Below are positions 213 through 18,897 of a stretch of 64,000 nt of DNA, piece after piece; positions within the stretch are counted from its first letter, which is position 1, and each line of letters opens with the position of its first letter. The position numbers and the translations under genes were made by a program. The DNA is taken from the NCBI GenBank assembly GCA_964579515.1, contig CAZOHA010000009.1, positions 41 to 64,040 on the forward strand. Reading direction: 5' to 3'. This stretch comes from an uncultured Bacteroides sp. GTDB taxonomy: Bacteria; Bacteroidota; Bacteroidia; Bacteroidales; GCA-2748055. The notes under the pieces were generated by a model. It saw nothing but the letters and a program-made list of their open reading frames with translations, was not told the origin of the DNA and searched no databases.

Positions 213-2483
213 TTATTTCTTGATCACCTTGAAGTGATGCACACCCTCACCCACTTTTAGCTGGAACACGTAGATTCCTGCACTGAAGCCGGTCAGGTCA
301 AAGGTTTCAGACATCCGGAGACCAGATCGCTTGATGACTGTCTTTCCGGTCATATCCATCACCTTGAGCTCGTCGGCCGGCTCACTAAGGATCATCTCCA
401 CCTTCCCGCTGGTGGGATTGGGATAAAGATTGACCCGGAGATCTCCCGATTCAACTATTCCCGTGGATCCCTGTACGTTAACCACGGCAAATTCTGTATC
501 CTGGTTTCCGGCCTGGTCGGAAACGGTTACTTCGATCAGGACCTCTCCCACATCGTCGGTGGTAAAGGATGATCTGCTTAACAGCGTATCCACCACCCCG
601 CAGTTATCCTCGACACTTTCCACCACATCGGAGGCAGTAATGGCACCGTTCCCAGATTCATCGAGTTGAACCGTGACCTCTTTGGTGGTCAGAACCGGAT
701 CGGTCTCATCGGGTGTAACGGTGAGCGTGCCTGTGGTATAGGTCATGGTGTAGTTATCGGCGCCTCCGCCCGAGACGGTAATATCATAGGTCCCGGCGGG
801 ACTGCTCTCGTCGGCCGCAGTGGCTGCTTCCGGCGTAGAGGTCAGCACCGATTCATCATCGGTTCCAACAAATCCCGTGATCACCACCGTGAACACCGGA
901 TTTTCAGTACACTCTTCCCGGCTCATATCATCGGCCGTCACCACCAGTTCGGCAGGAGTGATATTGCCGGTCAGATCGCCGGGTTGGTTCAGTGTATAGT
1001 TAGCGGCATCGGCTCCACTTAGATTCATGCCGGTGGTCACCGGGATGCCTGTTCCCACTCCGGCCTCGGCAAAGGTGCCCGATACAGCATCACTAAGAGT
1101 GACCTCATCGTCTCCGAGAATTCCTTGAAGAGAGCCTCCGGAAAGAGTCGCATCCGTGGTCCCGTCATAGACCTTGTCAGCTACAGTTATACCAATAACA
1201 GACAATGATTTAGGTGTGATATCGGCGCTGATTCCGCCGGGCTGAATCAGCGTGTAGTTGGCTGAATCTTCTCCGGACAGGGTCATGGCCGGGATCACCT
1301 CGATACCGGTTCCGACCGATGTCTGGGCAAATGTACCCGGGAGGGAATCGACCAGAACGACTTCGTCATCACCGATGATGCCGTTCAGACTGCCTCCGAA
1401 AACCTCCGCCGCGGAGGTTCCGTCATATACTTTGTCCTCTGCCACCGTACCTGTCACCGTGAGCTCGGCCGGGGTGACCTCCAGGTCCTGAGCCACCGGA
1501 TCCGCCGCCTGGTACTGGGCATTACCCTCCTGTGTGGCGGTAATGGTGGTGGTACCCACGCCCACCACAGATACCGTACTGCCTGTTATCGTGGCAACAC
1601 TCTCATCAGAGCTGGTATAGGAAACAGTCAATCCGGACGAAGCTACCGCATTCAGTTCAAAATCAGCACTACCATAAATGACCGGATCGATGGTTCCGAA
1701 ATCGATGGTCTGGGTCTGCTTCAGTGTGGTCACCGAGATTTTATTCGAACCCGGGCTGCTACCTCCCTTGTTATAGGCTTTGATCCTGTAATAGTAGGTA
1801 TTGACGGGAAGCAGACCGGTCACTTCGGTGGAAGTCACATTCCCCACATCCTTGTTCACATATCCGGTCACATAGCTGGTGAAGTCGATGTCGGTGGCCA
1901 CCTCTATGGAGTAACCGGTGGTATTCCCGCTTGCATCCCAGTTCGCAGTGAATGCGCCGGAATTCACATTGGTGGCTGCCAGTGCCAGCGGTGTTACGGG
2001 CGGCAGCTCCTCCTCCCCGTATACATGGAGCTCGGTAAACGATGCCAGTGCATCCTTCGAGGTGATATAGAACCTTACAAAGTTGTATATATCAGGGTAT
2101 GTCAGGTCGTAGGTAAAGGTCCCCGTTCCAGTAACAGTTACATTCTCCAGATCGAGCCAGGTGGTTCCGTCGGGACTTGCCTGGAAGATGATGTCACCCG
2201 GCAGTTCGGCCGGATTGGACAGGATCATCCCGAAACCGTCGATCAAATAGGCTTTCCCCAGATCGATCTGGATCCATACGGGAGCTGTCCCGGGGACGGC
2301 ACAATAGGTGGTGAGAAGCGTATCGACCGCTTTGCTGGGGCCGTTCCCCACCACGGAATCAGTGGCTGTAGCCAGCTTGAATGCAGCAATATTTGAGTTG
2401 CTGCCGGTGTACTGTCCCGCCGCCGCGACCGTGAGGACCAGCGTCAGAACAATGGTTTTACAGAGAAATATCAGTTTTTTCAT
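213..2483 (-). CDS. Large secreted surface protein: discoidin/F5-8-type-C-like N-domain, Fn3-like segment, repeated KVYDGT (YDG/MBG-type) modules and a T9SS C-terminal sorting domain
   Basis: Complete 756-aa ORF. The signal peptide is MKKLIFLCKTIVLTLVLTVAAAGQ. VADKVYDGT/AEDKVYDGT repeats are each followed by G(T/S)F. The C-terminus LYPNPTSGKVEMIL...GIYVFQLKV is a typical T9SS CTD. Confidence 0.85.
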   Translation of the reverse strand: MKKLIFLCKTIVLTLVLTVAAAGQYTGSNSNIAAFKLATATDSVVGNGPSKAVDTLLTTYCAVPGTAPVWIQIDLGKAYLIDGFGMILSNPAELPGDIIFQASPDGTTWLDLENVTVTGTGTFTYDLTYPDIYNFVRFYITSKDALASFTELHVYGEEELPPVTPLALAATNVNSGAFTANWDASGNTTGYSIEVATDIDFTSYVTGYVNKDVGNVTSTEVTGLLPVNTYYYRIKAYNKGGSSPGSNKISVTTLKQTQTIDFGTIDPVIYGSADFELNAVASSGLTVSYTSSDESVATITGSTVSVVGVGTTTITATQEGNAQYQAADPVAQDLEVTPAELTVTGTVAEDKVYDGTSAAEVFGGSLNGIIGDDEVVLVDSLPGTFAQTSVGTGIEVIPAMTLSGEDSANYTLIQPGGISADITPKSLSVIGITVADKVYDGTTDATLSGGSLQGILGDDEVTLSDAVSGTFAEAGVGTGIPVTTGMNLSGADAANYTLNQPGDLTGNITPAELVVTADDMSREECTENPVFTVVITGFVGTDDESVLTSTPEAATAADESSPAGTYDITVSGGGADNYTMTYTTGTLTVTPDETDPVLTTKEVTVQLDESGNGAITASDVVESVEDNCGVVDTLLSRSSFTTDDVGEVLIEVTVSDQAGNQDTEFAVVNVQGSTGIVESGDLRVNLYPNPTSGKVEMILSEPADELKVMDMTGKTVIKRSGLRMSETFDLTGFSAGIYVFQLKVGEGVHHFKVIKK

Positions 2484-5260: not shown

Positions 5261-5821
5261 TTACCGGATCCGGCTCCGGGAAAGGGCTGCTGCACGGTTA
5301 TATTCTTCCCGGCACACCATGCAAAACCGGTGTTCCTTCTGCTCCAGGTCCTCCACATAGGTGCTGGAGCGCATCACACAAGCCGGATGGCTGCAGTGGA
5401 TCAGACCGAAGGTATGCCCCAGCTCATGAATGATCACCTTGGTAAACCGCCCGATCAACAGTTCATAATCGGGTTTCAGCCCGTAATGCTCATTTCTCAG
5501 GCGGAAGATAGATACCACTCCTGTGCGCCCGTTCAGATGAGCCTGTCCGAAGATGTAGGTGAGGATGGGAATATAGAGATCGACCCTTGCCATCCCGATC
5601 ACCCTGACCGCCTCGGCCGGGGCACGCTCGGTGATCATTCTCAGTAATTCGTCGGCATCGTACTGACGCCGCACCGGATTATAGAAGTCGCTGATATCCA
5701 GGCTGCACTCCATCAGTTCCACGGGGAAGTGAAGCTCCCGGGTCACGTTCTCGGCCACTCTTTCAGTCAGCTTTTTCTCGAACAACCCGCAGGAAACCAG
5801 TATAATGCTTTGATCGCTCAA
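5261..5821 (-). CDS. Archaemetzincin-like zinc metalloprotease (peptidase M54)
   Basis: 186-aa ORF containing HELGHTFGLIHC (HExxHxxGxxHC), followed by CSHPACVM and FCMVC (the four-Cys second zinc site). It starts 6 nt after the stop of the response-regulator gene. Confidence 0.8.
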   Translation of the reverse strand: MSDQSIILVSCGLFEKKLTERVAENVTRELHFPVELMECSLDISDFYNPVRRQYDADELLRMITERAPAEAVRVIGMARVDLYIPILTYIFGQAHLNGRTGVVSIFRLRNEHYGLKPDYELLIGRFTKVIIHELGHTFGLIHCSHPACVMRSSTYVEDLEQKEHRFCMVCREEYNRAAALSRSRIR

Positions 5822-5827
5822 AGCCGG

Positions 5828-7165
5828 TTATTCCTCTTTTAGTTCGTATTTCCGGATCTTATTATAAAGGGTGGCCCTGTCGACGTTCAGGGCCCGGGCC
5901 GACCGGGAGATGTTCCATTTGTATTTTGAAAGGATCCTGGCGATATGCTTCCGCTCCAGCTCCTCCAGACTCTCAATGGAGCTGCTCATGGCCTCCTGAC
6001 CCATGGGCAGGTCCTTCAGCCTGATCACCTTTCCGTTACCCACCACGATGGCCCTTTCGATCATATTCTCCAGTTCTCTGACATTACCGGGGTATTCGAA
6101 CGATTCCAGGTGTTTCAGTGCGGCCGGTTCGATGGTGATCATATCCCGGCTCATGGAGGTGCAGTACTTCCTGATGAAATGGTCGACCAGGAGAGGGATA
6201 TCCTCGGGGCGCTCCCTGAGCGGCGGGATGCGGATATTGACCACGTTCAGCCGGTAGAAAAGATCCTCCCGGAAGGTCCCGTTTTCCACCATGCTTTTCA
6301 GGTCCCGGTTGGTGGCGCAGATGATCCTGAAATCGGAAGTGATCTCCCTGGAACCCCCGACGCGGACAAAGGTTTTCGTTTCCAGGACCCTCAGCAATTC
6401 CACCTGCATCTTGGATGAAATGGTGCCGATCTCATCCAGGAATATCGTGCCACCATCGGCCATTTCAAACCTCCCCTTCCGGTTAAAGGCGGCACCTGTG
6501 AAAGCGCCTTTTTCATGCCCGAAAAGCTCACTCTCCAGCAGACTTTCGGAAAGGGCACCGCAATGAACACTGATCAGAGGGAAATATTTCCTGGGAGAAT
6601 TGGAATGGATGGCCCTTGCCACCAGTTCTTTGCCCGTGCCGCTCTCCCCGGTGATAATGACCGAAGAGTTGGTCGGGGCCACACTCTCCACCTCCCTGAG
6701 TACCTTCCGGAGCGCCTCACTTTCTCCCACAATATCCTCCACGTCCGTCAGGGTGGTGATCTTATCCCTGAGACCCACATTCTCCTTCTTCAGGGTCACC
6801 TGTGTGGCCGCATTGCGGATCAGGTGAGAGAGATCATCCGGATCAAAGGGTTTGGTCACATAATCGAATGCTCCTTCCTTCAGTGCCTGGACGGCAGTAT
6901 CGACCGAGGCAAAAGCAGTCATAATGATCACTACGGGCTCTCCGGAAAGGGCTTTAATCCGCCTGTGCAGCTCCATCCCGTCCATGCCCGGCATCTTGAT
7001 ATCGACGAGTATAATATCGAAATCCCTGTCATCGAGCAGCTTTAGTGCTTTCTTGGCATCCTCGGCGCACTCGACATGGTATCCCTCCTCGATGAACCAG
7101 TTGTAAAGAGAATCCCGGACCGATTCTTCATCATCGACGATCAACATGGATATTCCTTTATTCAT
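5828..7165 (-). CDS. Sigma-54-dependent response regulator (NtrC family: REC + AAA+ + Fis-type HTH)
   Basis: ORF 5828..7465 trimmed to ATG 7165 (MNKGISMLIVDDEES). It has the receiver-domain motif DIILVDIKMPGMDG, Walker A GESGTGKE, the GAFTGA motif, and the C-terminal HTH ARALNVDRATLYNKIRKY. It overlaps the kinase stop by 8 nt. Confidence 0.9.
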   Translation of the reverse strand: MNKGISMLIVDDEESVRDSLYNWFIEEGYHVECAEDAKKALKLLDDRDFDIILVDIKMPGMDGMELHRRIKALSGEPVVIIMTAFASVDTAVQALKEGAFDYVTKPFDPDDLSHLIRNAATQVTLKKENVGLRDKITTLTDVEDIVGESEALRKVLREVESVAPTNSSVIITGESGTGKELVARAIHSNSPRKYFPLISVHCGALSESLLESELFGHEKGAFTGAAFNRKGRFEMADGGTIFLDEIGTISSKMQVELLRVLETKTFVRVGGSREITSDFRIICATNRDLKSMVENGTFREDLFYRLNVVNIRIPPLRERPEDIPLLVDHFIRKYCTSMSRDMITIEPAALKHLESFEYPGNVRELENMIERAIVVGNGKVIRLKDLPMGQEAMSSSIESLEELERKHIARILSKYKWNISRSARALNVDRATLYNKIRKYELKEE

Positions 7166-8819
7166 GAGATGATGGTTTTTCCTCCGCAAGCGGCAGAATA
7201 ATTGAAATGGTCGTCCCCCTGCCCGGCTCCGAATCCACCTCGATCTTCCCCTGGTGATTCTCCACGATCCCGTGTACAATGGAGAGACCCAGTCCGATCC
7301 CGCTGGTATCGCGTTTGGTGGAATAGAAGGGTTCGAAAATATGGGAAATGTCCCCGGGTGCGATCCCGACCCCGTTATCGGTGACACTCCACCGGATGCG
7401 CTTCTCATCGGGATTGGAAGTGCGGACAGTGATTTCGCCGTTCTCCCGGATCGCCTCCGTGGCATTCACCATGATGGCCACACATACCTGCTTGATCTGG
7501 TTGGGGCTGCAGTGGATCAGGTCATTTTCGGCATGGAAAAGATTCGTCAACTGAATATCGGCGATCTTGATGGAATGCCGCATCAACTTGCAGGTGTCGG
7601 AAAGCAGGCCGTGCAGGTGGCACGGCTCGAAATCCTCCCGGTCCTGGCGGGAGAAATCGAGAAGTCCGCGCACGATATCGCCGCAGCGCTTGGTCTCCGT
7701 CTCGATCAGCTTCAGGTTTTTCAGAATGCTTTCCTTCTTGGGATGATGGAACTCCGGGCGGTCGAGCTGTTTATGGATGAGCCGGTTGTAAACCAGGATC
7801 CCCGACAGGGGGTTATTGATCTCATGGGCCACCGAAGAGGAGAGTTTACCCAGTGAGGCGATGCGCTCCACATGGATCAGTTCGTTCTGGGCGGCAGAGA
7901 GCTCCTCCGACTTTTTCTGCACTTTGTATTCCAGTTGCCGGGACCAGTTTTGCAGCTCTTTGGTGGCCATTTCTATATTATCGAGCATATTGTTGAACGC
8001 CTCGGATACCAGCCTCATGTCATTCAGCAATCCCGGCTTGATCTCCAGCCGGATGGAATGATCTCCGCCGGACACCCTTTCACTGGCCTGAATGAGCGAG
8101 TTGAGCGGCCGTTTGATCCGCCGGCGGGTAAACAGGACCAGGAAAGTGACCATCAGCACAGTGATCAGTGTGGCTAGTAACATAAAATCGGTGGAGGATT
8201 GATCGGCAAATGCATCGAGATCGTCCAGTGGCATGGTGATCAAAAGGGATCCGAGCACAGGCTCATCCTCCGGGTGATAATGGCAGTCGGCCGTGCTGCA
8301 GGATGGTTCATTGAGTATGGACTTTTTGATCAGCAGGTGACGTGCTCCCTCATTCGTCTGGCGGATCCCGCATTCAGGGATATTTTCCACCACCAGGTAA
8401 GCCTTTTCTCCCGGCGGGAACATCGAGGAGATTCCGGAATGACAATCAGTACAGCTGGGATTCCCGTCCAGATCCGGATCCCCGGTCAGGCTCGAGTATG
8501 CCAGAAGGTCGTTCTGGTCGTACATATTGACCTCATCGATCCCCGACATGGTACTGATCATATCCAGGGTTCGCTGCAGCATGGCTTGGTCGTTCTCCAG
8601 CATCGAATAGTAGAGCGATCCCTCCACGATGGAGCTGATCTGGTCCCCGCTGCGGCCGAGGGTCTCATTGAAGAAATCGGTGTAGATGGTACGGAAAACC
8701 AAAAGGAACAGGATGAAGAGAATCAAAAGAGAGCCTGTTATAATGAACACCACCCTCCCGTAAATGGAAGATCTGAACTGGTAGAACTTCCTGAGAAAGC
8801 CCTTCATCGGTCCGCTCAT
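7158..8819 (-). CDS. Sensor histidine kinase (2 TM, periplasmic loop with haem-c binding motifs, HAMP, HisKA, HATPase)
   Basis: 553-aa ORF. TM1 is VVFIITGSLLILFILFLLVF and TM2 is FMLLATLITVLMVTFLVLF. The periplasmic loop holds CTDCH (CXXCH) and CSTADCH (CX4CH). The kinase core has H-box SSVAHEINNPLSG and G-boxes DNGVGI and GIGLGLSIV. Confidence 0.9.
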   Translation of the reverse strand: MSGPMKGFLRKFYQFRSSIYGRVVFIITGSLLILFILFLLVFRTIYTDFFNETLGRSGDQISSIVEGSLYYSMLENDQAMLQRTLDMISTMSGIDEVNMYDQNDLLAYSSLTGDPDLDGNPSCTDCHSGISSMFPPGEKAYLVVENIPECGIRQTNEGARHLLIKKSILNEPSCSTADCHYHPEDEPVLGSLLITMPLDDLDAFADQSSTDFMLLATLITVLMVTFLVLFTRRRIKRPLNSLIQASERVSGGDHSIRLEIKPGLLNDMRLVSEAFNNMLDNIEMATKELQNWSRQLEYKVQKKSEELSAAQNELIHVERIASLGKLSSSVAHEINNPLSGILVYNRLIHKQLDRPEFHHPKKESILKNLKLIETETKRCGDIVRGLLDFSRQDREDFEPCHLHGLLSDTCKLMRHSIKIADIQLTNLFHAENDLIHCSPNQIKQVCVAIMVNATEAIRENGEITVRTSNPDEKRIRWSVTDNGVGIAPGDISHIFEPFYSTKRDTSGIGLGLSIVHGIVENHQGKIEVDSEPGRGTTISIILPLAEEKPSSHE

Positions 8820-8867: not shown

Positions 8868-9575
8868 CTAAAGTTCCAGGAACTCCTTCCGGAAACGCTC
8901 CCAAACTTTTCCGTCGAGCTCCGAGAGGGGGAACTCCACAAGCTCACCGCCCTCCTGAAGCACCAGCCCGCGGGAATCTTCCTGCCTCTGGCTCAGAGCA
9001 CCGGAAAGGAAATCCTTGAACCTCACCAGTTCCGATCTGATCCATTCCCTGGCTTCGGTCGCCAGAAAGTACGGCCCGGTCTCCTCTTTCCAGTTCTCCG
9101 GCTCGATCCTGTAAAGCCAGGATCCGTAGGGATCCTCGAACATGGGAGTGCTGTCCTCTTCCAGCGAATGACGGCTCTGCACCACCCGGCCGGAAATGGG
9201 AGATCCGATTTCCAGCTCTTTCCCATCCTGAATGACTCGTGCCAGGATCTCTCCCTTTTTCACAATCGAGCCATCCGCAAGGACCAGTTCCACCCTGACC
9301 CGGCCGGTCAGATGAAGCAGAAGATCATCCAGTCCCACATTGGCCTTACCGGAGCGGGTCAGGTATGCCCAGGTATGATTCCGGCTCAGGAAGACCCCGG
9401 CCGGTATCCGGAGCCTGGCCGGAGAAAGGGCGCCGGACCTCTGCCAGCCGGTCTTCACCTGGACCGGTTTATTAAGGTAGATCCAGAGGGGAATGAGTAG
9501 TACCAGGAAACCGATCACAATCAGGTATTCGATGCCCTTGGTGTCGAAAATGTCCGTATAAACAAATGGTTCCAT
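8868..9575 (-). CDS. Membrane-anchored GcvH-like (glycine-cleavage H / lipoyl-domain fold) protein with a conserved C-terminal extension
   Basis: 235-aa ORF with an N-terminal TM (YLIVIGFLVLLIPLWIYL). GcvH hallmarks are HTWA, VGLDD, SPISGRV and DPYGSWLYRI. Its roughly 190-aa cytoplasmic module is paralogous to the C-terminus of the 11718..13409 product. Confidence 0.75.
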   Translation of the reverse strand: MEPFVYTDIFDTKGIEYLIVIGFLVLLIPLWIYLNKPVQVKTGWQRSGALSPARLRIPAGVFLSRNHTWAYLTRSGKANVGLDDLLLHLTGRVRVELVLADGSIVKKGEILARVIQDGKELEIGSPISGRVVQSRHSLEEDSTPMFEDPYGSWLYRIEPENWKEETGPYFLATEAREWIRSELVRFKDFLSGALSQRQEDSRGLVLQEGGELVEFPLSELDGKVWERFRKEFLEL

Positions 9576-9595: not shown

Positions 9596-10825
9596 TCAGT
9601 GATTATCTTTTGCCCACTCGGGGGGATCGCGCAATACAGGCATCCGGCGAACGATCCACCGGAAAATCCATATCTCGACACAGAGTATCGTCAGTGTGAC
9701 CACGATCTCCATCCAGGAAGGAACATAGGGTGTGGCGGCATCCCATTTGAAACCGATGACCGTCACATTGAGCCGGTTCATGATCACTCCGAGCATGGTC
9801 CAGAGAGCGGAGAACTTTATCAGCCGGATATTCATCGTCCGGTAGCTGATAAAAAACAGGATCATCGGCAAAAGGACGAACCCGAGCATCTCCAGCAGGT
9901 ACCATGCACCCATCCTGGTCTGCAGCAGGTTCCAGTTCTTCCCGTGAGCCAGCACCACCACCTGCAGGGCGAAATATACCAGCATGGTCATGGCGCAGAT
10001 CCTGGAAAGGCCGTGGAGGATCCCGTTATGGGCGTGATGGTCCTTCTCGCTGATCTGGTCGAAGAAGACCCTGCGGCTGATAGAACCCTCAAAAATCACC
10101 ATGGAGAGTCCTGCAAAAATGCTGGAGACAAAGAACAGGATGGGAATGAACTCCGAATACCAGAGAGGATGGATCTTATCCCTGGCCATCAGGTAAAGGG
10201 CGCCCAGTCCCGACTGGTGCAGGGTCGACAGGGTGATCCCGAAGATGACCGCCGCAAGGGTCATTCCCGACAGGATCCTGCGGGCCCGTTTCGCCCCGAT
10301 CCATTCCGCAATGGCCGGGGAGAACTCGATCAGCTGCGCAACCATATACAGGAGAAAATGCCAGGCCACCAGAAAGAGGACCGAACTGACCCCAAAACTG
10401 TTACCGATGATGGGATTGATGACATTCCAGGGCTTTCCCAGGTCAAGCAACAGGGCCCCGGCATAAAACACGTAGGCCAGGAAACCGTTCAGCACGGTGA
10501 CCCGCACAATGGGACGGTACTTCTCCATATTGAGGATATATACCAGGAAGGTCACCACATAGGCTCCCCCTGCGAATGCCACCCCGGTCACCACGTCAAA
10601 TCCGATCCAGAGACCCCACGGAACTTCCTGGGTTAAATTGGTGATGGAACCGATCCCTTTGGCAAAGCGGATCACGATCAGTACGATGCCGGTCATGATA
10701 ATGGGAACCGAAATCATATTAAAGGGAGTGAACACCCTTCCCCTGGGTCTGAAAGCTTCCGCAAGGAATTTTCCGACGGGTCTCCCGTCATTGTCGCGGG
10801 AAATGGTATGGTCTGTGCTATTCAT
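9596..10825 (-). CDS. NrfD/PsrC/HybB-family polytopic membrane protein (quinone-interacting subunit)
   Basis: ORF 9596..10912 trimmed to ATG 10825 (MNSTDHTISRDNDGRP), which overlaps the upstream FeS gene stop by 8 nt. It has about 10 predicted TM helices. The sequence character and its position directly after an NrfC-like gene are typical of the NrfD family. Confidence 0.75.
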   Translation of the reverse strand: MNSTDHTISRDNDGRPVGKFLAEAFRPRGRVFTPFNMISVPIIMTGIVLIVIRFAKGIGSITNLTQEVPWGLWIGFDVVTGVAFAGGAYVVTFLVYILNMEKYRPIVRVTVLNGFLAYVFYAGALLLDLGKPWNVINPIIGNSFGVSSVLFLVAWHFLLYMVAQLIEFSPAIAEWIGAKRARRILSGMTLAAVIFGITLSTLHQSGLGALYLMARDKIHPLWYSEFIPILFFVSSIFAGLSMVIFEGSISRRVFFDQISEKDHHAHNGILHGLSRICAMTMLVYFALQVVVLAHGKNWNLLQTRMGAWYLLEMLGFVLLPMILFFISYRTMNIRLIKFSALWTMLGVIMNRLNVTVIGFKWDAATPYVPSWMEIVVTLTILCVEIWIFRWIVRRMPVLRDPPEWAKDNH

Positions 10826-11690
10826 GATCTTCCTCCTTTTTGGTATTCTTTTTTGTGGCATTGTGGATCCCCAGCAGCATGGCCGGCCACAGAATAAAAA
10901 TGGAAGGTACACTGTAGAGGAACCCTTTGGTCAGCTCGGGGTAGGAACTCTTCTGGATCTTTGTATTGAAAGCGAGCTCCTCGAATGGAACGGGCGAGAT
11001 ATACAAAAATCCGGTACCTCCGGCCTCATGCTCCCCGTAAATATGATCGTGGTACCAGTCAGGCATGTCATGGATCCGCTGCCTGGCTTCGGCGATCATC
11101 TCCCTGCGTGTTCCGAAGGTGAGTGCCCCGGCGGGACAATTCTCCACACAGGCAGGGATCTGGCCCTGTTGCAGCCGTTCGAAGCACATGTCGCATTTGG
11201 AGATCTTCGGATTCGGGCTGTGGTATTCGAACTTGGGAACATCGAAAGGACAGGACACCATGCAATACCTGCATCCCATGCATTTATCCTCACTCCATAC
11301 CACCGGTCCGCCGGGGGTCTTATGCATGGCCCTGGTCAGACATGCGGAAGCACAGGCAGGCTGGTTGCAATGCATGCACTGGTTTTTCACATAAACCTCC
11401 CCCTGAGAGGTTTCATAGGCATTGATAACGGAACGCCGGTTCTCATTGGCTTTTCGGGATACACCCGGAACGGGCAGATCGTTCTTCAGATCGGGCTCGG
11501 GAAGGCCGTGCTCTTCGGCACATACCAGCTCACAGGTCTGGCATCCGCCACACATATTGGCATCGAAAAGAACAGCCATCATCTCACCATCCTCTTTTTC
11601 CGGCCGGGCAGCACCCAGTTCCTTTCCTGTTCCCAGGGCCACACCTGTCAAACCGAGCGCCCTGAAAAAATTTCTTCTGTTGATTGCCAT
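10818..11690 (-). CDS. Tat-exported 4x[4Fe-4S] ferredoxin-type subunit (NrfC/PsrB/HybA family)
   Basis: 290-aa ORF with the twin-arginine signal MAINRRNFFRALGLTGVALG. Four cluster motifs are present: CGGCQTCELVC, CMHCNQPACASAC, CMGCRYCMVSCP and CDMC...CVENCP. Confidence 0.88.
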   Translation of the reverse strand: MAINRRNFFRALGLTGVALGTGKELGAARPEKEDGEMMAVLFDANMCGGCQTCELVCAEEHGLPEPDLKNDLPVPGVSRKANENRRSVINAYETSQGEVYVKNQCMHCNQPACASACLTRAMHKTPGGPVVWSEDKCMGCRYCMVSCPFDVPKFEYHSPNPKISKCDMCFERLQQGQIPACVENCPAGALTFGTRREMIAEARQRIHDMPDWYHDHIYGEHEAGGTGFLYISPVPFEELAFNTKIQKSSYPELTKGFLYSVPSIFILWPAMLLGIHNATKKNTKKEEDHE

Positions 11691-11717: not shown

Positions 11718-13409
11718 TTAAGATCTGTTGAGAAATTTAAGCTGGAACTCTTCCCACTCGACCGGACCGAAATCCTCCAGAGCGGCGCTTTTGATCTCCC
11801 CGCCATCCTGGAGAACGACAGAGGGATCCTTTTTGTCCCTGCAACAACTCACCAGGAAATCCCTCAATCTGGAAATCTCACTCTTCAGCCAGTTGCGGTA
11901 CTTTTCACCCAGCAGAAAGTACTTCAGCTCTTCCATCCAGTTAAATGGCTGGACCAGGTACACCCATCCGCCGGCATATGGTTCCCGGTTCAGCATGCCG
12001 GCATCCTTTAACAGCACCGCATTGTACTCCTCCACTATGCCCGACACGGGCGATTTGATCTCGACCTGCTTTCCGTCCTGAACCAGTTTCACCAGGGATT
12101 CCCCCCTGCGGACCGTTTCACCCGGTTCTTTCATGATCACACGGGTAAGCCGGCCGGTGACATGCTGGATAAAATCATCCACACCGATCCGCACCCGGCC
12201 GTCCTTCTCCATGAAGGTCCAGGTGTGGGAGCGGTCGTAAAAAAGACCTTCGGGATGCGTGAGCCTGTCATGGGCAAATACCGGCTTATCGGACAGATCT
12301 GATTCATACATGCCACCCTTCCTCTTTCTGCCCCTGAAGGAGATCAGTACCGCCAGAGCGGAGATCAAAAGAATCCCGAGCAGGATGATCAGGATGATTT
12401 TCGTCACCGGTGCCACCAGTGGAACCACCCGGGCGGTTTCCTCTTCCTCCCCGGCCGCGAGCTGCTCCATACCCCGGTTTCTCTCCGCATACTCAATTCC
12501 CAGGAATCCCAGTGAAGCCAGATTCTCCTGTCCACCCGACAGCATCCAGCTTGCGAAGACCCTGCCATCCTCAGTGGCCGGAGGCTGTTCCGCCACCATA
12601 TATATTCTGTTATAGAGGGCATCGGGATATCTTCCCACGTAGATCCCGTGAGAAAGGTCGCTGCAGCACCGGAATATGTCCTCGAAGTGATCGATCTGCC
12701 CGTTTCCGTCAAGATCGATCGGCACCAGGCTGATCCCCGACTCCATGCCGGATTCGTGCCGCTTCATCAAAGCAGCCAGTGAGCAAAAACCCATGGCATC
12801 CCTCTCTGAAGCCACACGGTCGAGAAGCCCTTCCGGATCTTCAGGTGCCGTCCCGAGGAGATCCACGGGTTTCACCCCTATAAATTCAGAAAGATAGGTC
12901 CTCCCGCACTGGTTAGCCGGAAGAAAGGCCTCTACCCTGCCTGGATCATCCGTTCCGAGTATGCTCCCCCAGGTTATTTGCTCCCCGCCGGTAAAAATGG
13001 ACCGAAACTCCTGAGGAGTGATCCCTCTGTCCAGAATTTGTTCGCGGTGAGGATTCTGTGCATTGATAAAAGGCACCACCGCATCACGCCCGATCACCAT
13101 CCGGCAGGAGGGTTTGATCCCCTCAAATATCCGGCAGCCCTGATATACCAGTGCAAAGCTCCGCTTATTCAAATTTTCTCCAACCTTATCATCGGGCACG
13201 GCAACCACATGGACCGGGATGCCGGGATGTTCCTTCTGAAAAGCAGAGACCTGACGGATGGCCAGGTTCTCCAGTTCCGGGGTACAGATCAGCTTCAGGT
13301 GTTCTCCCTCCCCGTTTTCATTCAACCCGGACTGGGCGAAGCATGCAGTCATTGCCAGGCATACCAGCGCGACCGAGGTCATCATCTTCTTTGTTGTAGT
13401 TTTCATCAC
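11718..13409 (-). CDS. Fusion protein: exported PstS-like (PBP_like_2) periplasmic binding domain, one TM helix, and a cytoplasmic GcvH-like module
   Basis: 563-aa ORF with signal/lipoprotein-like N-terminus MMKTTTKKMMTSVALVCLAMTAC. The PstS-family motif ITPQEFRSIFTGGEQITWGSILG is present. The TM helix IILIILLGILLISALAVLISF is followed by RGRKRKGG. The GcvH-like part carries HTWTF, IGVDD, SPVSGIV and EPYAGGWVYLVQP. Confidence 0.8.
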   Translation of the reverse strand: MMKTTTKKMMTSVALVCLAMTACFAQSGLNENGEGEHLKLICTPELENLAIRQVSAFQKEHPGIPVHVVAVPDDKVGENLNKRSFALVYQGCRIFEGIKPSCRMVIGRDAVVPFINAQNPHREQILDRGITPQEFRSIFTGGEQITWGSILGTDDPGRVEAFLPANQCGRTYLSEFIGVKPVDLLGTAPEDPEGLLDRVASERDAMGFCSLAALMKRHESGMESGISLVPIDLDGNGQIDHFEDIFRCCSDLSHGIYVGRYPDALYNRIYMVAEQPPATEDGRVFASWMLSGGQENLASLGFLGIEYAERNRGMEQLAAGEEEETARVVPLVAPVTKIILIILLGILLISALAVLISFRGRKRKGGMYESDLSDKPVFAHDRLTHPEGLFYDRSHTWTFMEKDGRVRIGVDDFIQHVTGRLTRVIMKEPGETVRRGESLVKLVQDGKQVEIKSPVSGIVEEYNAVLLKDAGMLNREPYAGGWVYLVQPFNWMEELKYFLLGEKYRNWLKSEISRLRDFLVSCCRDKKDPSVVLQDGGEIKSAALEDFGPVEWEEFQLKFLNRS

Positions 13410-13460: not shown

Positions 13461-13476
13461 TTCAAAGATTGTGCCA
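13461..13476 (-). promoter_or_regulatory. Candidate sigma-54 (-24/-12) promoter for the 13409..5261 operon
   Basis: The minus strand reads TGGCACAATCTTTGAA. TGGCAC and the GG-N10 spacing are canonical, but the -12 element is TTGA rather than TTGC. It sits about 52 nt upstream of the ATG at 13409, and a sigma-54 activator is encoded in the operon. Confidence 0.35.
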
Positions 13477-13632
13477 CACACATCTTAAATCCTGGTTCAC
13501 TGATACTTACAATCATTTATCTGGTTTTGGCATTTCCAGAATGTGATGTTTTTTTCAACACTACAATTTGAATAGGGGTGTGAACAGGTTCTTTCTTAGA
13601 GCATTACGCATTATGTCGATTTTTTTAGCATC

Positions 13633-13649
13633 TGTTGTAATTTACAACA
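13633..13649. promoter_or_regulatory. 17-bp palindrome TGTTGTAA-T-TTACAACA in the divergent intergenic region (possible activator or operator site)
   Basis: Perfect 8-bp inverted repeat around a single central base. It lies about 160 bp upstream of the putative -24 element and about 130 bp upstream of ATG 13777. Confidence 0.3.
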
Positions 13650-13776: not shown

Positions 13777-15732
13777 ATGGTACCGGACATTTTAAAGACA
13801 TTATCGGAGAAGGGAGTGGAACTGCCGGAACAGGTGGCCGGTCTGCTGCGCTCATGCAGAAGCTTCCAGTGTTTCAGTACTACGGCAGAGCTGGTCGATG
13901 CCTCCACGGCGGGTATTGAAAATAAAGAGTTCCGGGTAACCTATCCTCTGCCGGGAGAAAACCGGGAGGTGACCGAAGCGATCGTTCACCGGGTGAGGAA
14001 CGGAATATCGGTCAACTATCCGGAACCCTATATGCGGCGCAGGGATCCCTCCACCATGTCGATCGCCGATGCCACCCCCACCGATAAGAAACTATTCAGC
14101 GATAAATACGGTTACGAGTTCGAGGACCTCAGAAAAGAGACCCTTGACTGGTTAAAAGAGCAGGACCTGGCCATGTTCTTCTATTTCGCCGGTCGGATGG
14201 GGATCGGTTCCCTGGGCCTGGCGATTGTTCCTTCCAACTCCGCCTTTTTCGCCATGGGATTGTCCATGTTGCAGGAGATGGTCGATCCGGTGACCATCGC
14301 CGACGGGACGGAGATTAAATCGGTGATCTTCGTGGCACCGGTGTTCAGACATACCCATTTCGACGGAAAACAGGTAGTGGTCCATAACCGGACAGAACAC
14401 GTGCATGAGCTGTATGCATACAATCTCTATCCCGGTCCCAGTGCCAAAAAAGGATTATACGGGGTTTTGCTGTCCCAGGGTGAAAAAGAACAGTGGATCA
14501 CGGCTCACTGCTCGGCGGTGCAGTCGATCTCTCCTTACGACAATGTGACCACCTTCATGCACGAAGGAGCCAGCGGGGGAGGAAAAAGCGAGATGCATCA
14601 GCACATTATCCGGGAACCGGATGGAAGGGTACTGCTGGGGACCAACACGTTCAGCGGAGAGGAGCGGTTCATTACCATTCCCAGGTTCTGTACCTTCCTC
14701 CCCATCGCCGATGACATGGCCTTCTGCCATCCGTCCCACCAGCGGGAGGACGGTAAACTGAGGATCCTGGATGCTGAGAACGCCTGGTTCGTGCGGGTTG
14801 ACAGCGTAACCGCTTACGGGGACGATCCGTTCCTGGAAAAAGCCACCATCCATCCCGGTAAACCTTTGCTGTTCCTGAATATTGATTCACAGCCCGAATC
14901 CACCGCCCTCATCTGGGAACATATTGAGGATGAACCCGGAAAACCGTGCCCCAATCCCCGGGTCATCCTTCCGCGGGATACGGTTCCCAATGTCATCGAA
15001 AATCCCGTATCGGTCGATATCCGGAGTTTCGGGATCCGGTCACCTCTCTGCTCGGCAGAAGACCCCACCTACGGGATCATCGGGATGTTCCATATTCTGC
15101 CCCCGGCCCTGGCATGGCTCTGGAGGCTGGTAGCCCCCCGCGGCCATAAAAACCCCAGCATCGTCTCCACCGGCCAGATGGAGAGCGAGGGGGTCGGATC
15201 CTACTGGCCCTTTGCCACCGGTAAACGGGTGGTCCATGCCAATCTCCTGCTGAAGCAGATCATCGAGACACCCAGGACCACCTTCACCCTGGTTCCCAAC
15301 CAGCATATCGGGGTATGGAAGGTGGGCTTCAAGCCTCAGTTGCTGATGCGTGAATACCTCACCCGCAGGGGGGTGGCCAGGTTACGGAGCGACCAGTATC
15401 AGCCGGCACGCTGTCCGTTGCTGGGGTATGAACTGAATTACCTGACCCTGGAAGGCTCCAAGATCCCCTCCCGGTTCCTCAAGGTCTACAATCAGACCGA
15501 AGTTGGGGTGGAAGGATATGATGCCGGCGCCGCCCAGCTGAGGGAATTCTTTCACAGTCAGCTTCATCAGTTCCTCCAGGAGGATCTGTTGCAGACGGGC
15601 CGGAGAATTATCGAGGCATGCCTTTCCAATGCCAGTGTCGAGGAGTACAACGAAATCGTGCCCATGACTTACCAGTACAGGTTCACCAACATGGAATCGT
15701 ACGAACAGACCTCCCTCTTCAACGGGCAGTGA
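13777..15732 (+). CDS. Conserved hypothetical protein with an HprK/PEPCK-like P-loop (possibly the DUF4914 family)
   Basis: 651-aa ORF with no signal peptide. It contains HEGASGGGKSEM, which resembles the GxSGxGKSE P-loop of HPr kinase/PEPCK-fold enzymes. The DUF4914 family name is from memory and is unverified. Confidence 0.7.
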   Translation: MVPDILKTLSEKGVELPEQVAGLLRSCRSFQCFSTTAELVDASTAGIENKEFRVTYPLPGENREVTEAIVHRVRNGISVNYPEPYMRRRDPSTMSIADATPTDKKLFSDKYGYEFEDLRKETLDWLKEQDLAMFFYFAGRMGIGSLGLAIVPSNSAFFAMGLSMLQEMVDPVTIADGTEIKSVIFVAPVFRHTHFDGKQVVVHNRTEHVHELYAYNLYPGPSAKKGLYGVLLSQGEKEQWITAHCSAVQSISPYDNVTTFMHEGASGGGKSEMHQHIIREPDGRVLLGTNTFSGEERFITIPRFCTFLPIADDMAFCHPSHQREDGKLRILDAENAWFVRVDSVTAYGDDPFLEKATIHPGKPLLFLNIDSQPESTALIWEHIEDEPGKPCPNPRVILPRDTVPNVIENPVSVDIRSFGIRSPLCSAEDPTYGIIGMFHILPPALAWLWRLVAPRGHKNPSIVSTGQMESEGVGSYWPFATGKRVVHANLLLKQIIETPRTTFTLVPNQHIGVWKVGFKPQLLMREYLTRRGVARLRSDQYQPARCPLLGYELNYLTLEGSKIPSRFLKVYNQTEVGVEGYDAGAAQLREFFHSQLHQFLQEDLLQTGRRIIEACLSNASVEEYNEIVPMTYQYRFTNMESYEQTSLFNGQ

Positions 15733-15798: not shown

Positions 15799-18700
15799 AT
15801 GCATGTACCTCCTGTCGCCCTCTGTTTTCTTCTGATATCTGCAACGCTCTTCGCTCAGCCGGCCACCGGATTCTATGATGATTTCGAGGATGGCCGGCCG
15901 GATACCATTGTCAATGACTCCACATTCCTCCTCTGGAAAGCCGATCACCCGCGAACCTTCGGGATCACGGAGACCGGGGGCACACTTCAAATTGCCTATA
16001 CCAGAACCGACACCAGCCAGCCATGGGACAACTTCAACTTCACCCCGCCCATCCCGGTGGATGTGGCTTTCAATCCGGTGATTTCGCTGAAGATCCAATC
16101 GGATGTATCCCATATTTTTACCGTAAAACCGATCTATTCCAACGGGAAATCCAGATTGATCCAACAGGATATCCCCGGTGACGAAAGCTGGCATAGCTGC
16201 AGCTTTCAGCTTTCGGAGACTAACTATTCAGGAGGTGTGCTGGAAAAGATCTACTTCTATTTCGACGGAGGATCCAGCGCACTCCAATCCGGCCTGGTGC
16301 TGTTCGATGAGTTCCGGATCGCCGGAGTGACCGTCCCGGTGAACCAGCTGGAAGCACATCTGATCGATTCGTCGACGGTGGAGCTTACCTGGGAAACGGA
16401 GGATACCTCCCTGGTAGGTCATTTTAATGTTTACCGCGGATCCGGGCCATTCTTTCCGGCCGGGGAGGCTTCCAGGATCGGTGAGACCCGTGCGCTGAGC
16501 TACCTGGATACCGGACTGGTGAACAACACGACCTATTTCTACAAGGTATCAGCCACCGATAAAGAGGACAAGGAGCATCCTCCGGCTTCGGTCAGCATCC
16601 GAACCTCTGTTCCGGGGGCCATTCCCTCTCTGGAGGTCATTCCGCAGCAAACCGGTTCCGTGGGCAGGTATGAGAAGGTTGAACTATGGGTTCAGATGTC
16701 CGATGCCTCCTACACCAATCCTTTCGACCCGGATGAAATCGACCTCTATGCCTGGTTCCTGGGGCCTGAAGGCGATTCCATAAAGATCAATGGTTTCTAC
16801 GACAATTACCAGGCAGCTGACCAGTGGAAGATCCGTTTCGCCGCGCCTTCGGAAGGAACCTGGGAATACCGGGTATACGCCACAGATGTGGACGGGACCG
16901 GATCCGGTGCACCGGGAACATTCGAAGTGTCGGCATCGGAGCATAAAGGGTGGCTGAGGATTTCTGAAACGAATCCCAATTACCTGGAGCATCACGACGG
17001 CACCGGCTTTTACGGGATCGCCGCGTACTATCCGTGGAATGTCACCGAAACCCGGCTGGATCAGTTCCGGGCGGTGAAGGGCAATATATTCGGGTACTGG
17101 GACTGCACCTACGATAACGAGGGAAACGGAGGAGGAAGGTACCTGCTGGAATCCATGGATTCGGGGCTCGGCAGGTACGACCAGCGCAAAGCGGCCAGGA
17201 TCGACCAGGTATTGTCATGGGCCGAGGAAAGAGATATGAAGGTGATGCTGGCACTGTGGGTCCACCCCTATCTCCGGATCGAAAATGTACCCTGGGACAA
17301 CGGGCAGTGGAACGAGTACAATCCCTACAGCACCATTGTGGAGGTGGAGGATTTCTATACCGACAGTGTGGCCCTCTGCTATCAGGAAAAGCATCACCGG
17401 TACGTGCTCGCCCGGTGGGGATACAGCCGCGCACTGGGGATCTGGGAACTCATCAATGAGATCCACGGCACATCGGGCTGGGTATCGGATCGCGGGGCGG
17501 CCAAGAGGTGGGTGGAAAGGGTCCACACCTATTTCCGCGAGAATGACCCATATTCACGGCCCACCACCGCCTCCTTCGGAGGTAGTGAAGGGGTCTCCCA
17601 CTACTCGGAGAACGACCTTCTGGGAAGCATGCCCAATGTTCACTTCTACGAGAAGCATGGCTGGCCAACGCCCTATCCGGAAGACCTGGTCCGGAGCGGA
17701 CTGGAGAACATGGTCCGGCTCGCCCGGAGCCTGAAAAGCAAAGGCAACCGTCCTGCCTTTCTGGGCGAGGCGGGTTACTATTCGATGCTGGCCGATGTGG
17801 AGACCAAAGCCTATACCTGGGAATTTCACAACACCTTCTGGGCAGGACTCACGAACGGACTGGCCACCACACCTTTCTGGTGGGAATTCAACAAAGCCGA
17901 CATCTTCACCCCGGAACGCATGCAGCTCTACTCCCACCTGGAAGGATTTGCCGGGGATCTCGATCTGAACCGGCATCCATGGACCCGCTCGGACATATCG
18001 GTCCGGCAGGCTGACGGCTATTTCATGGACTCCGGGAAGAGCGGATTCGGCTGGTTAAAGACCTATCACGGTTCCGCCGCAGCCGGCAGTGCACTCTCCA
18101 TCCGCAACACCTCACTGGAAAACGGGACCTGCTTGCTTGAATGGTATGATACCTGGTCAGGACAATTTACACACACCGACACTACCTACTCGGTATCCGG
18201 GCTCACCTGGGCCATGGTACCCGGTCAGACGGAGCGGGAGGACGCTGCCTTCAGGTTACGTTCCACGGAACCCGGAGGTGCAGCCAGCCGGATCGTTCTC
18301 CGCCTGGTGGAGACGGACACCCTGGTGCCCGGGCCCTTTCCATGGTCACCGGGAGAAGACTCCCTCGTTTATAAAATCGCCTGTTTTGTAACGGACGGAG
18401 AAAACCTTCTGGATGTGGGCTATGCGGGACCTGTGGAAATAAAGATATGGGCGGAAGGTCTGTCTGATTCGCTTCAGCTCGGGACAGAACTGGAGAATGG
18501 CGGACAGGTATTCGATTATCCGTTCTCCGACACCATTCCTGCTTTGATGGTGGCTTCCATACCGGGACTGGGATCCGATACGCTCTTCCTGGGCGGTGCC
18601 ACAGGGCCTCTGACCGGTATCCGGACCCTTCCATCGCCTTCGCCGGAGCTGGCGTGCTATCCGAATCCGTTTCACCGGGAAACCGCCATTGTCTATACTG

Positions 18701-18897
18701 TTCCGGATGCCGGAAAGGTCACCCTGACCATATTCGACCTGAATGGAAGAGCGGTCGAAGTGCTGGAAGAGAACATCCGGCCGGCCGGAAAACACCGGGT
18801 TATCTGGAATTCCGATGGCTATCCAGGCGGAATCTACTTCTGTCAATTCCGAAGCGGGGCCACTTCCCGCACGCTGAAACTGATTGTAAATCCATGA
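15799..18897 (+). CDS. Secreted multidomain glycoside-hydrolase-like protein (Fn3, DUF5060-type Ig domain, TIM-barrel GH5-like region) with T9SS CTD
   Basis: 1032-aa ORF with signal peptide MHVPPVALCFLLISATLFAQ. It has an Fn3-like segment (NTTYFYKVSATD) and a DUF5060-like segment (EKVELWVQMS...WKIRFAAPSEGTWEYRVYATD). The CTD is CYPNPFHRETAIVYTVPDAGKVTLTIFDLNGR...GIYFCQF. Confidence 0.8.
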   Translation: MHVPPVALCFLLISATLFAQPATGFYDDFEDGRPDTIVNDSTFLLWKADHPRTFGITETGGTLQIAYTRTDTSQPWDNFNFTPPIPVDVAFNPVISLKIQSDVSHIFTVKPIYSNGKSRLIQQDIPGDESWHSCSFQLSETNYSGGVLEKIYFYFDGGSSALQSGLVLFDEFRIAGVTVPVNQLEAHLIDSSTVELTWETEDTSLVGHFNVYRGSGPFFPAGEASRIGETRALSYLDTGLVNNTTYFYKVSATDKEDKEHPPASVSIRTSVPGAIPSLEVIPQQTGSVGRYEKVELWVQMSDASYTNPFDPDEIDLYAWFLGPEGDSIKINGFYDNYQAADQWKIRFAAPSEGTWEYRVYATDVDGTGSGAPGTFEVSASEHKGWLRISETNPNYLEHHDGTGFYGIAAYYPWNVTETRLDQFRAVKGNIFGYWDCTYDNEGNGGGRYLLESMDSGLGRYDQRKAARIDQVLSWAEERDMKVMLALWVHPYLRIENVPWDNGQWNEYNPYSTIVEVEDFYTDSVALCYQEKHHRYVLARWGYSRALGIWELINEIHGTSGWVSDRGAAKRWVERVHTYFRENDPYSRPTTASFGGSEGVSHYSENDLLGSMPNVHFYEKHGWPTPYPEDLVRSGLENMVRLARSLKSKGNRPAFLGEAGYYSMLADVETKAYTWEFHNTFWAGLTNGLATTPFWWEFNKADIFTPERMQLYSHLEGFAGDLDLNRHPWTRSDISVRQADGYFMDSGKSGFGWLKTYHGSAAAGSALSIRNTSLENGTCLLEWYDTWSGQFTHTDTTYSVSGLTWAMVPGQTEREDAAFRLRSTEPGGAASRIVLRLVETDTLVPGPFPWSPGEDSLVYKIACFVTDGENLLDVGYAGPVEIKIWAEGLSDSLQLGTELENGGQVFDYPFSDTIPALMVASIPGLGSDTLFLGGATGPLTGIRTLPSPSPELACYPNPFHRETAIVYTVPDAGKVTLTIFDLNGRAVEVLEENIRPAGKHRVIWNSDGYPGGIYFCQFRSGATSRTLKLIVNP

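Follow-up and report, generated by a model that had tools for sequence, protein, structure and literature searches.

Two genes of a 64,000-nucleotide window of DNA from an uncultured Bacteroides sp. (assembly GCA_964579515.1, contig CAZOHA010000009.1; the whole of this stretch is called the window below) encode membrane proteins, A and B, which are named glycine cleavage system protein H in source annotations and which share a cytoplasmic module with a true H-protein fold. The module has lost the lipoyl-lysine of the canonical position, and the two genes bracket an HmcB/HmcC-like gene pair in a conserved cluster of seven genes under predicted sigma-54 control. The proposal to which we give about even confidence is that A and B are non-lipoylated adaptor subunits of a sigma-54-induced membrane complex of the HmcB/HmcC type which interacts with quinones. 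A search of sequencing runs found the window sequence solely in metagenomic DNA runs. The coordinates of both proteins, taken from translated open reading frames (ORFs), are as follows.

9575..8868, minus strand: protein A, 235 aa, composed of a 17-aa N-terminal stub (predicted periplasmic), a transmembrane helix at about residues 14-34, a linker, an H-protein-fold domain at about residues 54-165 and a helical C-terminal extension to residue 235
9221..9219, minus strand: codon of Lys119 of protein A
13409..11718, minus strand: protein B, 563 aa (555 aa if the second ATG cluster is the start), composed of a signal peptide, a divergent PstS-like periplasmic domain, a transmembrane helix and a cytoplasmic H-protein-fold domain with its extension
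12407..12336, minus strand: transmembrane helix of protein B, residues 335-358
12266..11721, minus strand: H-protein-fold domain and extension of protein B, residues 382-563
12080, minus strand: start of the QDGK hairpin of protein B

The shared module is an H-protein fold, and a homologue of GcvH by score as well as by structure. Both proteins exceed the gathering score of the Pfam family GCV_H (PF01597, 22.2 bits), A with 41.8 bits and B with 70.2 bits. When a profile made from 121 family members was searched against the PDB, the strong matches were solely to glycine-cleavage H-proteins (1onl, E 3.6e-20; pea H-protein, 5e-18), while the E2 lipoyl and biotinyl domains gave E values of at least 0.01 at best; the module is therefore an H-protein homologue. 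Assignment to a different barrel-sandwich family, which the sequence-only reading had held to speak against its idea, was made by no profile search. The E2 lipoyl, biotinyl and membrane-fusion-protein families could be ruled out as the identity of the module, having E values of at least 0.01 or faint precomputed matches. The AlphaFold2 (AF2) model of A has a mean pLDDT (predicted local distance difference test) of 84.8, with values above 90 over residues 55-195, and in Foldseek it is matched to H-proteins including 1onl and 3a8i with TM-scores of 0.87-0.89 and root-mean-square deviations of 1.5-1.9 Å. The H-domain of the B model gives TM-scores of 0.84-0.86 and an identity of up to 31%, the latter to Thermus thermophilus GcvH.

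Proteins A and B are paralogues over this module, as had been claimed from the letters of the sequence: residues 54-233 of A and 382-560 of B share 37% identity over 181 aa with three gaps (BLASTP, E 5e-42). Most of the shared blocks named at that time are present in both, including HTW(A/T), (V/I)G(L/V)DD, QDGK..EI.SP(I/V)SG, W(I/L)(R/K)SE..R..DFL, VLQ(E/D)GGE and the terminal FL, but the (D/E)PYG(S/G)W block does not hold as written, B reading EPYAGGWVY with an insertion of one residue. A profile of the module run against all ORFs of the window found exactly two copies, A and B. Across loci the identity between A and B (31-41%) is lower than that among A proteins (45-58%) or among B proteins (41-59%), so that the duplication is ancient and predates the spread of the cluster.

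Both copies carry a helical C-terminal extension which is absent from GcvH. Its length had been given as about 70 aa, a figure that counts the C-terminal helix which GcvH already has; the residues beyond that helix are only about 50 (185-235 of A). A profile of the extension alone (78 positions) matched 575 representative clusters among 1.84 billion proteins, and the best 150 of these were inspected. All of them were A-type proteins (about 233-248 aa), B-type proteins (about 519-594 aa) or fragments, always with the extension at the extreme C-terminus, and the module therefore appears, as far as these best 150 of 575 clusters go, to occur in the A and B architectures only. A third, soluble architecture was considered and rejected, the short matches (65-213 aa) starting internally or with an unrelated leader and looking like fragments from contig edges. 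A 296-aa match (P0232) has a signal-peptide-like N-terminus of its own and may be a B-type variant with a far smaller periplasmic part or a mis-called gene. The extension alone has no Pfam match up to E 10 and no separate Foldseek match; weak PDB sequence hits to MarR/SarZ at E of about 0.6 were taken as noise. In the alignments no invariant cysteine is present in the module of either A or B.

The module differs from GcvH in the position of its conserved lysine. In a MAFFT alignment with E. coli GcvH there is no gap from the upstream glycine (G108 of A, the G of VKKGE) to the PxSG motif, and the E. coli lipoyl-lysine stands opposite G118 of A, placing the family lysine, Lys119, at +1. HMMER profile alignments give the same ungapped register against the H-proteins of T. 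thermophilus (1onl) and pea (1dxm). In the AF2 model of A the hairpin is made of strand 110-116, the turn D117-G118 and strand 119-124, and B has the same arrangement; in both the lysine is the first residue of the second strand, after the two-residue D-G turn. Three ungapped alignments and two models thus agree with the original call of a lysine one position past the canonical one, and the shift is real and not an artefact of alignment. The lysine is not at the tip of the hairpin but directly behind the turn.

The residues in the column of the family lysine were counted in an HMM-guided alignment, for orthologues taken from genomes and for database representatives (clustered at 50% identity), as follows.

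Protein A, 81 species-level genomes: Lys 68, Arg 8, Gly 3, Asn 1, His 1
Protein A, database representatives: Lys 13, Arg 3
Protein B, genomes: Lys 65 out of 65
Protein B, database representatives: Lys 96, Arg 2

Loss of the lysine in orthologues, which the sequence-only reading had held to speak against its idea, is therefore found for A (13/81) but hardly for B, where lysine is kept in 161 of 163 sequences (98.8%) and replaced by arginine in two. The canonical lipoyl-lysine column is occupied by glycine in all 163 B sequences, and in A by G, D, N or E in 81/81 genome-derived sequences, with a single lysine among the 16 database representatives. The thirteen non-lysine variants of A are spread over five or more sequence contexts (GDR(Q/K)LKIASP, NGGHL.IKSP, DGNELRIMSP, NGRSLSVFSP and NGHSLDVLSP); the proteins are full-length, their clusters are intact, and some are devoid of any lysine in the hairpin tip. 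Together with the observations that follow, replacement of the lysine in an intact cluster argues that A cannot be an obligate lipoyl carrier, and B is probably not one either.

Further observations go in the same direction. In a lipoyl domain a lysine introduced at the neighbouring position on either side of the lipoyl-lysine, after it in A43K and before it in D41K/K42A, was not lipoylated, the position at the tip of the turn being decisive (reviewed in PMC6270654). Regular expressions for LplA, LipB, LipA and canonical GcvH hairpin motifs found nothing in the window or in the 1.37 Mb surrounding 82 loci. Both proteins score far below the cutoffs of the NCBIfam GcvH models, A with 30 and B with 62 bits against 115.85 for TIGR00527, and with 38 and 69 bits against 117 for NF002270. 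From these sequence data we infer that neither protein is lipoylated.

Membrane tethering with the module on the cytoplasmic side, also part of the initial description, is supported by the distribution of charges around the transmembrane helices. Averaged over 120 A-type proteins, the 16-residue stretch ahead of the helix has 1.07 K+R versus 2.42 D+E, and the one behind it 3.85 K+R versus 0.86 D+E. In protein B a signal peptide precedes the periplasmic domain, and the single transmembrane helix is followed by RGRKRK; in the B orthologues the signal peptide looks cleavable and the 16 residues past the helix average 3.4 K+R. From this bias the H-like modules are predicted to be cytoplasmic.

The periplasmic parts of the two proteins differ in size and in conservation. 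The stub of A (M..F.Y.DIFDTKGIEY, 17 residues, near-invariant) is the best-kept segment of the protein, with a conservation of 0.82 versus 0.66 for the H-domain; it may therefore touch a partner that is itself highly conserved, such as the HmcC-like protein (66-83% identity across loci). In B the periplasmic domain varies more than any other part of the cluster, with 22-41% identity. It matches PBP_like_2 (cutoff 27) with 29.2 bits when isolated and with 26.5 bits within the full-length protein, and its fold is PstS-like in Foldseek (4jwo, 8e-16, with 1twy and 4gd5 also found, at 12-16% identity). The phosphate-ligating motifs of PstS (the N-terminal GSxT, and SGT) are not recognisable in the B consensus when read by eye. 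The domain contains one further element.

12681..12716, minus strand: EF-hand-like loop DLDGNGQIDHFE in the periplasmic domain of protein B (motif)

In 45 orthologues the loop keeps D1 (45/45), N/D3 (45/45), N/D5 (44/45), G6 (43/45) and E12 (45/45), and it may be a calcium site.

The main clue to the function of A and B is their conserved gene context. Though the sequence-only reading was right on the paralogy and on the register, it missed the HmcB/HmcC-like pair between the two genes and the strictly conserved cluster of seven genes around them, with its predicted sigma-54 control. The other members of the cluster are listed here.

10818..11690, minus strand: HmcB/HybA-like periplasmic iron-sulfur protein, 290 aa (Fer4_11, 9.8e-22)
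9596..10825, minus strand: HmcC/HybB-like integral membrane protein of the NrfD family, 409 aa (NrfD, 1e-12)
7158..8819, minus strand: sensor histidine kinase, 553 aa, with a transmembrane helix, a periplasmic domain, a second transmembrane helix, HAMP, HisKA and HATPase domains
5828..7165, minus strand: sigma-54-dependent response regulator, 445 aa, with REC, AAA+ and Fis-type HTH domains (profile matches)
5261..5821, minus strand: zinc metalloprotease of the archaemetzincin family, 186 aa (NF033823, 158.9 bits versus a cutoff of 145)

The HmcB-like protein has a twin-arginine signal (RRNFF), four iron-sulfur cysteine clusters and a C-terminal transmembrane anchor. The start of the HmcC-like gene overlaps the HmcB-like stop by 8 nt; the mechanically called ORF (9596-10912, minus strand) is too long and the start is most likely at 10825. 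The regulator gene likewise overlaps the stop of the kinase by 8 nt, its mechanical ORF (5828-7465, minus strand) being too long and its start most likely at 7165. The periplasmic domain of the kinase (residues about 120-185) has no Pfam match and no PDB sequence match; in 77 orthologues it keeps CxxCH (C123, C126, H127), C150 and SCxxxxCHxH (C174, C179, H180, H182). By their likeness to the CXXCH and CX4CH sites at which c3-type haem c is attached, the motifs suggest that the domain may bind haem.

A scan of one genome per species detected 428 loci encoding a relative of A, and the best 80 of these come from Bacteroidales or Bacteroidota assemblies, including Prolixibacteraceae, Draconibacterium, Mariniphaga, Marinilabiliaceae, Lentimicrobiaceae and Salinivirgaceae, save for one bin labelled Omnitrophica; the carriers are Bacteroidales of sediments, mats and hypersaline habitats. 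The order B, HmcB-like, HmcC-like, A is unbroken wherever the sequence of the locus suffices, with median gaps of 54, -4 and 43 nt within this block. The gap between A and the kinase has a median of 195 nt and reaches 1425 nt. Kinase and regulator follow the four-gene block in all loci but one; in one locus (L073) they and the archaemetzincin are absent nearby, and in another (L081, a genome of 6.4 Mb) the kinase, regulator and archaemetzincin form a unit upstream of the block, with unrelated genes (DUF4143, EAD11) filling the roughly 4 kb in between. In 68/80 loci the archaemetzincin gene comes after the regulator at a distance of 0-100 nt, and it is therefore counted as the seventh conserved gene. 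The cluster is thus made of two separable units, and the split loci together with the sizes of the gaps show that A and B are kept together with the HmcB/HmcC-like pair rather than with the two-component system.

In the same best 80 loci there are no further conserved neighbours besides the genes for the HmcB-like and HmcC-like proteins, kinase, regulator and archaemetzincin, and neither gcvT nor gcvP is among them. The cluster encodes no cytoplasmic redox enzyme, and profile scans found in it no gene for a multihaem cytochrome, a cytochrome b or a CCG-domain protein. The DUF4914, SulP and carbonic anhydrase genes of the window were considered as members of the cluster and rejected, not being conserved with it. 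The gene for the DUF4914 protein (651 aa, 943 bits; 13777-15732, plus strand) is divergent and directly beside the cluster, and is at this position in 0/80 related loci. Elsewhere in the window two genes for large secreted proteins (213-2483, minus strand, and 15799-18897, plus strand) have C-terminal ends which by eye look like type IX secretion sorting domains, which fits an origin of the window from Bacteroidota.

Upstream of the B gene the following regulatory elements could be recognised.

13463..13476, minus strand: predicted sigma-54-type -24/-12 promoter TGGCACaatctTTG, about 55 nt upstream of the B start
13633..13649, minus strand: inverted repeat TGTTGTAAATTACAACA (TGTTG-N7-CAACA), candidate site for an enhancer-binding protein, about 170 nt upstream of the -24 element
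13544..13560, minus strand: a further copy of this repeat, TGTTGAAAAAAACATCA, which has one mismatch and lies about 85 nt upstream of the -24 element

The element TGGCACaatctTTG is the sole sigma-54-type -24/-12 match of the window. The pattern TGGCA[CT]N5TTG is present in 58/66 orthologous upstream regions, with 0.2 expected from shuffles, and TGTTG-N7-CAACA with at most one mismatch in 60/66, versus 1.0 in shuffles. The repeats are located at about -80 to -100 and -160 to -200 from the -24 element, distances which are the usual place of sites for enhancer-binding proteins. Given its linkage, the adjacent sigma-54 regulator is presumably the activator of this promoter.

Among known systems, the closest in fold is GcvH itself (PF01597; PDB 1onl, 3a7l, 1hpc), with which A and B share the profile match at 3.6e-20, identities of 24-31% and TM-scores of 0.84-0.89, the core motifs HxW, GxxD, PxSG and (D/E)PY..GW, and the C-terminal helix. 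Unlike GcvH, which has the lysine at the turn in an E-S-V-K-A context, they have Gly, Asp, Ser or Asn there and the lysine one residue later; they are not small soluble proteins but are membrane anchored, with about 50 extra C-terminal residues and, in B, a fused periplasmic PstS-like domain, and they have no linkage to gcvT or gcvP and fall below the NCBIfam cutoffs for GcvH. They are likewise below the cutoff of the GcvH_rel_desulf model (NF045810, 150 bits), with 36.5 bits for A and 30.6 bits for B.

Two H-protein homologues outside glycine cleavage have been described, and searches of the general GcvH-like literature returned work on these only. LbpA of the sulfur-oxidising Hdr-like system is a soluble protein with a canonical lipoyl-lysine, lipoylated by dedicated ligases encoded nearby and with hdr-like neighbours (PMC6067878). 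It resembles A and B in having moved from glycine cleavage into a gene cluster of membrane-linked and redox-linked energy metabolism, and differs in that A and B are membrane-bound, have a shifted lysine and lack both hdr-like neighbours and, at the level of regular expressions, ligase motifs nearby. GcvH-L of the Firmicutes is soluble, lipoylated at the canonical lysine and encoded with a lipoate ligase, a macrodomain protein and a sirtuin (PDB 5a35; PMC12440151). It is an H-like paralogue with a structural match to the family (5a35, E 2.5e-6 in Foldseek), but the ligase, macrodomain and sirtuin neighbourhood is missing from A and B and their lysine is shifted.

The nearest relatives of the gene pair between B and A are found in Desulfovibrio Hmc and in HybA/HybB of E. 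coli hydrogenase 2, with scores of 322 for HmcB (cutoff 420), 406 for HmcC (cutoff 550), 231 for HybA (cutoff 263) and 255 bits for HybB, all below the equivalog cutoffs. In distinction to these systems the cluster contains no HmcA cytochrome, HmcD/E/F or hydrogenase genes, and the pair is flanked by two H-fold membrane proteins. In systems like AioXSR the genes for a periplasmic binding protein, a kinase and a sigma-54 regulator adjoin an oxidoreductase operon that depends on sigma-54. The present cluster is similar in having a domain with a binding-protein fold, a sensor kinase and a sigma-54 regulator beside a predicted sigma-54-dependent oxidoreductase operon; here, however, the binding-protein fold is membrane anchored, is fused to an H-like domain and goes with the oxidoreductase genes rather than the kinase gene, and the cluster has no gene for a catalytic molybdoenzyme. 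Literature searches combining GcvH-like with NrfD, glycine cleavage H with HmcB/HmcC, and PF01597 with NrfD, sigma-54 and Bacteroidetes yielded nothing relevant. The module is a variant within the known GCV_H fold family, in a cluster for which no describing paper was found.

On the adaptor proposal, A and B would be anciently duplicated single-pass membrane proteins of a Bacteroidales-specific complex, the core of which would be formed by the HmcB-like periplasmic four-cluster iron-sulfur protein and the HmcC-like NrfD-type subunit interacting with quinones. Their shared module would derive from the glycine-cleavage H-protein by loss of the lipoyl-lysine at the turn and addition of a helical C-terminal extension specific to the family, and fold and extension together would offer a platform for binding of proteins or ligands at the cytoplasmic face. 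The conserved basic residue past the turn, a lysine and sometimes an arginine, would be a determinant of binding and not the attachment site of a cofactor. To the periplasmic side B would contribute the PstS-like domain with its EF-hand-like loop and A the 17-residue stub, through which they would probably touch the HmcB-like and HmcC-like proteins or a partner in the periplasm. The genes for B, the HmcB-like protein, the HmcC-like protein and A would be transcribed from the sigma-54 promoter with its TGTTG-N7-CAACA sites, presumably driven by the neighbouring kinase and regulator.

Several points weigh against this proposal. The physical assembly of A and B with the HmcB-like and HmcC-like proteins is something we infer from gene order alone. 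The adaptor would be cytoplasmic though the redox chemistry of the module faces the periplasm, for which the proposal gives no account, and the archaemetzincin has no place in it. The lysine of B, kept in 98.8% of sequences after an invariant glycine, is under a constraint stronger than is usual for a surface contact and compatible with a site of modification. The experiment with the lysine at +1 concerned an E2 lipoyl domain with its own ligase and not an H-protein or enzymes of Bacteroidales, and the negative result for ligases comes from regular expressions over flanking DNA and not over whole genomes, and is thus weak.

Of the other explanations, the database names, by which A and B would be genuine H-proteins of glycine cleavage, have on their side the matches to Pfam GCV_H and the annotations themselves. 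Such an identity has next to no probability, given that the canonical lipoyl-lysine is gone, that the NCBIfam scores are far under the cutoffs, that both proteins have membrane anchors and an extra C-terminal part with a periplasmic domain fused to B, and that in the loci examined the genes are never beside gcvT or gcvP and always in the seven-gene cluster. More serious, though still unlikely, is a role as co-sensors of the two-component system, in which the PstS-like domain of B would bind a ligand and signal via the transmembrane helix to the H-like module, and this module, with A, would touch the kinase or the sigma-54 regulator by a logic like that of AioX/AioS/AioR. The HmcB/HmcC-like pair would then be the regulated output, or the source of a redox signal for the Cys/His-rich domain of the kinase. 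Such a role would suit the architecture of B (a binding-protein fold, one transmembrane helix and a cytoplasmic domain), the linkage to kinase and regulator in almost all loci, the sigma-54 dependence of the operon predicted from the conserved promoter and repeats, and the interchange of lysine and arginine, which fits an electrostatic contact. It is less easily reconciled with the split clusters (L081, L073), where A and B stay with the HmcB/HmcC-like pair, with a would-be sensory domain that is the least conserved part of the cluster and in which GSxT and SGT motifs are not recognisable by eye, and with the absence of any sensor domain from A.

Somewhat less probable again is that A and B are tethered swinging-arm carriers, the lysine at least of B bearing an acyl cofactor, lipoate or another one, which a dedicated ligase encoded elsewhere would attach. 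The H-like domains would serve as dithiol/disulfide or acyl carriers between the HmcB/HmcC-like module and cytoplasmic redox chemistry, in parallel to LbpA and the Hdr-like system. NrfD-type subunits are not known to contain the haem that would move electrons across the membrane, and the cluster offers no cytoplasmic redox enzyme at the other end. The fold is well kept, with B 31% identical to T. thermophilus GcvH, and the lysine, found in 161/163 B and in about 84% of A proteins, stands beside a near-invariant glycine at a tight turn; yet it is at +1 and not at the tip, 16% of species have R, G, N or H instead in an A protein whose cluster is intact, and arginine replaces it in two B sequences. 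Precedent exists in H-like carriers outside glycine cleavage with ligases of their own, LbpA (PMC6067878) and GcvH-L (PDB 5a35; PMC12440151), but no gene for a ligase or synthase was found by regular expressions in or near the cluster, in distinction to both of those loci, and the engineered +1 lysine was not lipoylated in the one lipoyl domain examined (PMC6270654). In its boldest form, which we consider rather improbable, the near-invariant lysine of B and of most A proteins would be modified with lipoate or a different acyl cofactor by a non-canonical ligase acting at +1, as part of a new respiratory or sensing complex. In it, tethered arms at the cytoplasmic face would talk to the periplasm-facing quinone module of NrfC/NrfD type; the archaemetzincin might in that case be a demodifying or processing enzyme.

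In hundreds of Bacteroidales genomes two genes each are routinely misnamed glycine cleavage system protein H, and since A and B fail the defining feature of the H-protein, it is an error to count them as GcvH in metabolic reconstructions. The H-protein fold, normally that of a soluble swinging-arm carrier, is found here, apparently for the first time, as a module that is duplicated, anchored in the membrane and provided with a C-terminal extension of its own, and that is tied into a quinone module of NrfC/NrfD type under predicted sigma-54 control. The pair A and B constitutes a natural experiment, with a lysine that is dispensable in A and near-invariant in B, by which the dependence of lipoylation on the position of the lysine may be probed. 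The cluster is also a defined target for studying how anaerobic Bacteroidales of sediments, mats and hypersaline sites sense or handle redox or periplasmic substrates. Its main value lies in a widespread annotation error and in the entry it gives to an unstudied membrane system of the Bacteroidales, rather than in a proven new mechanism.

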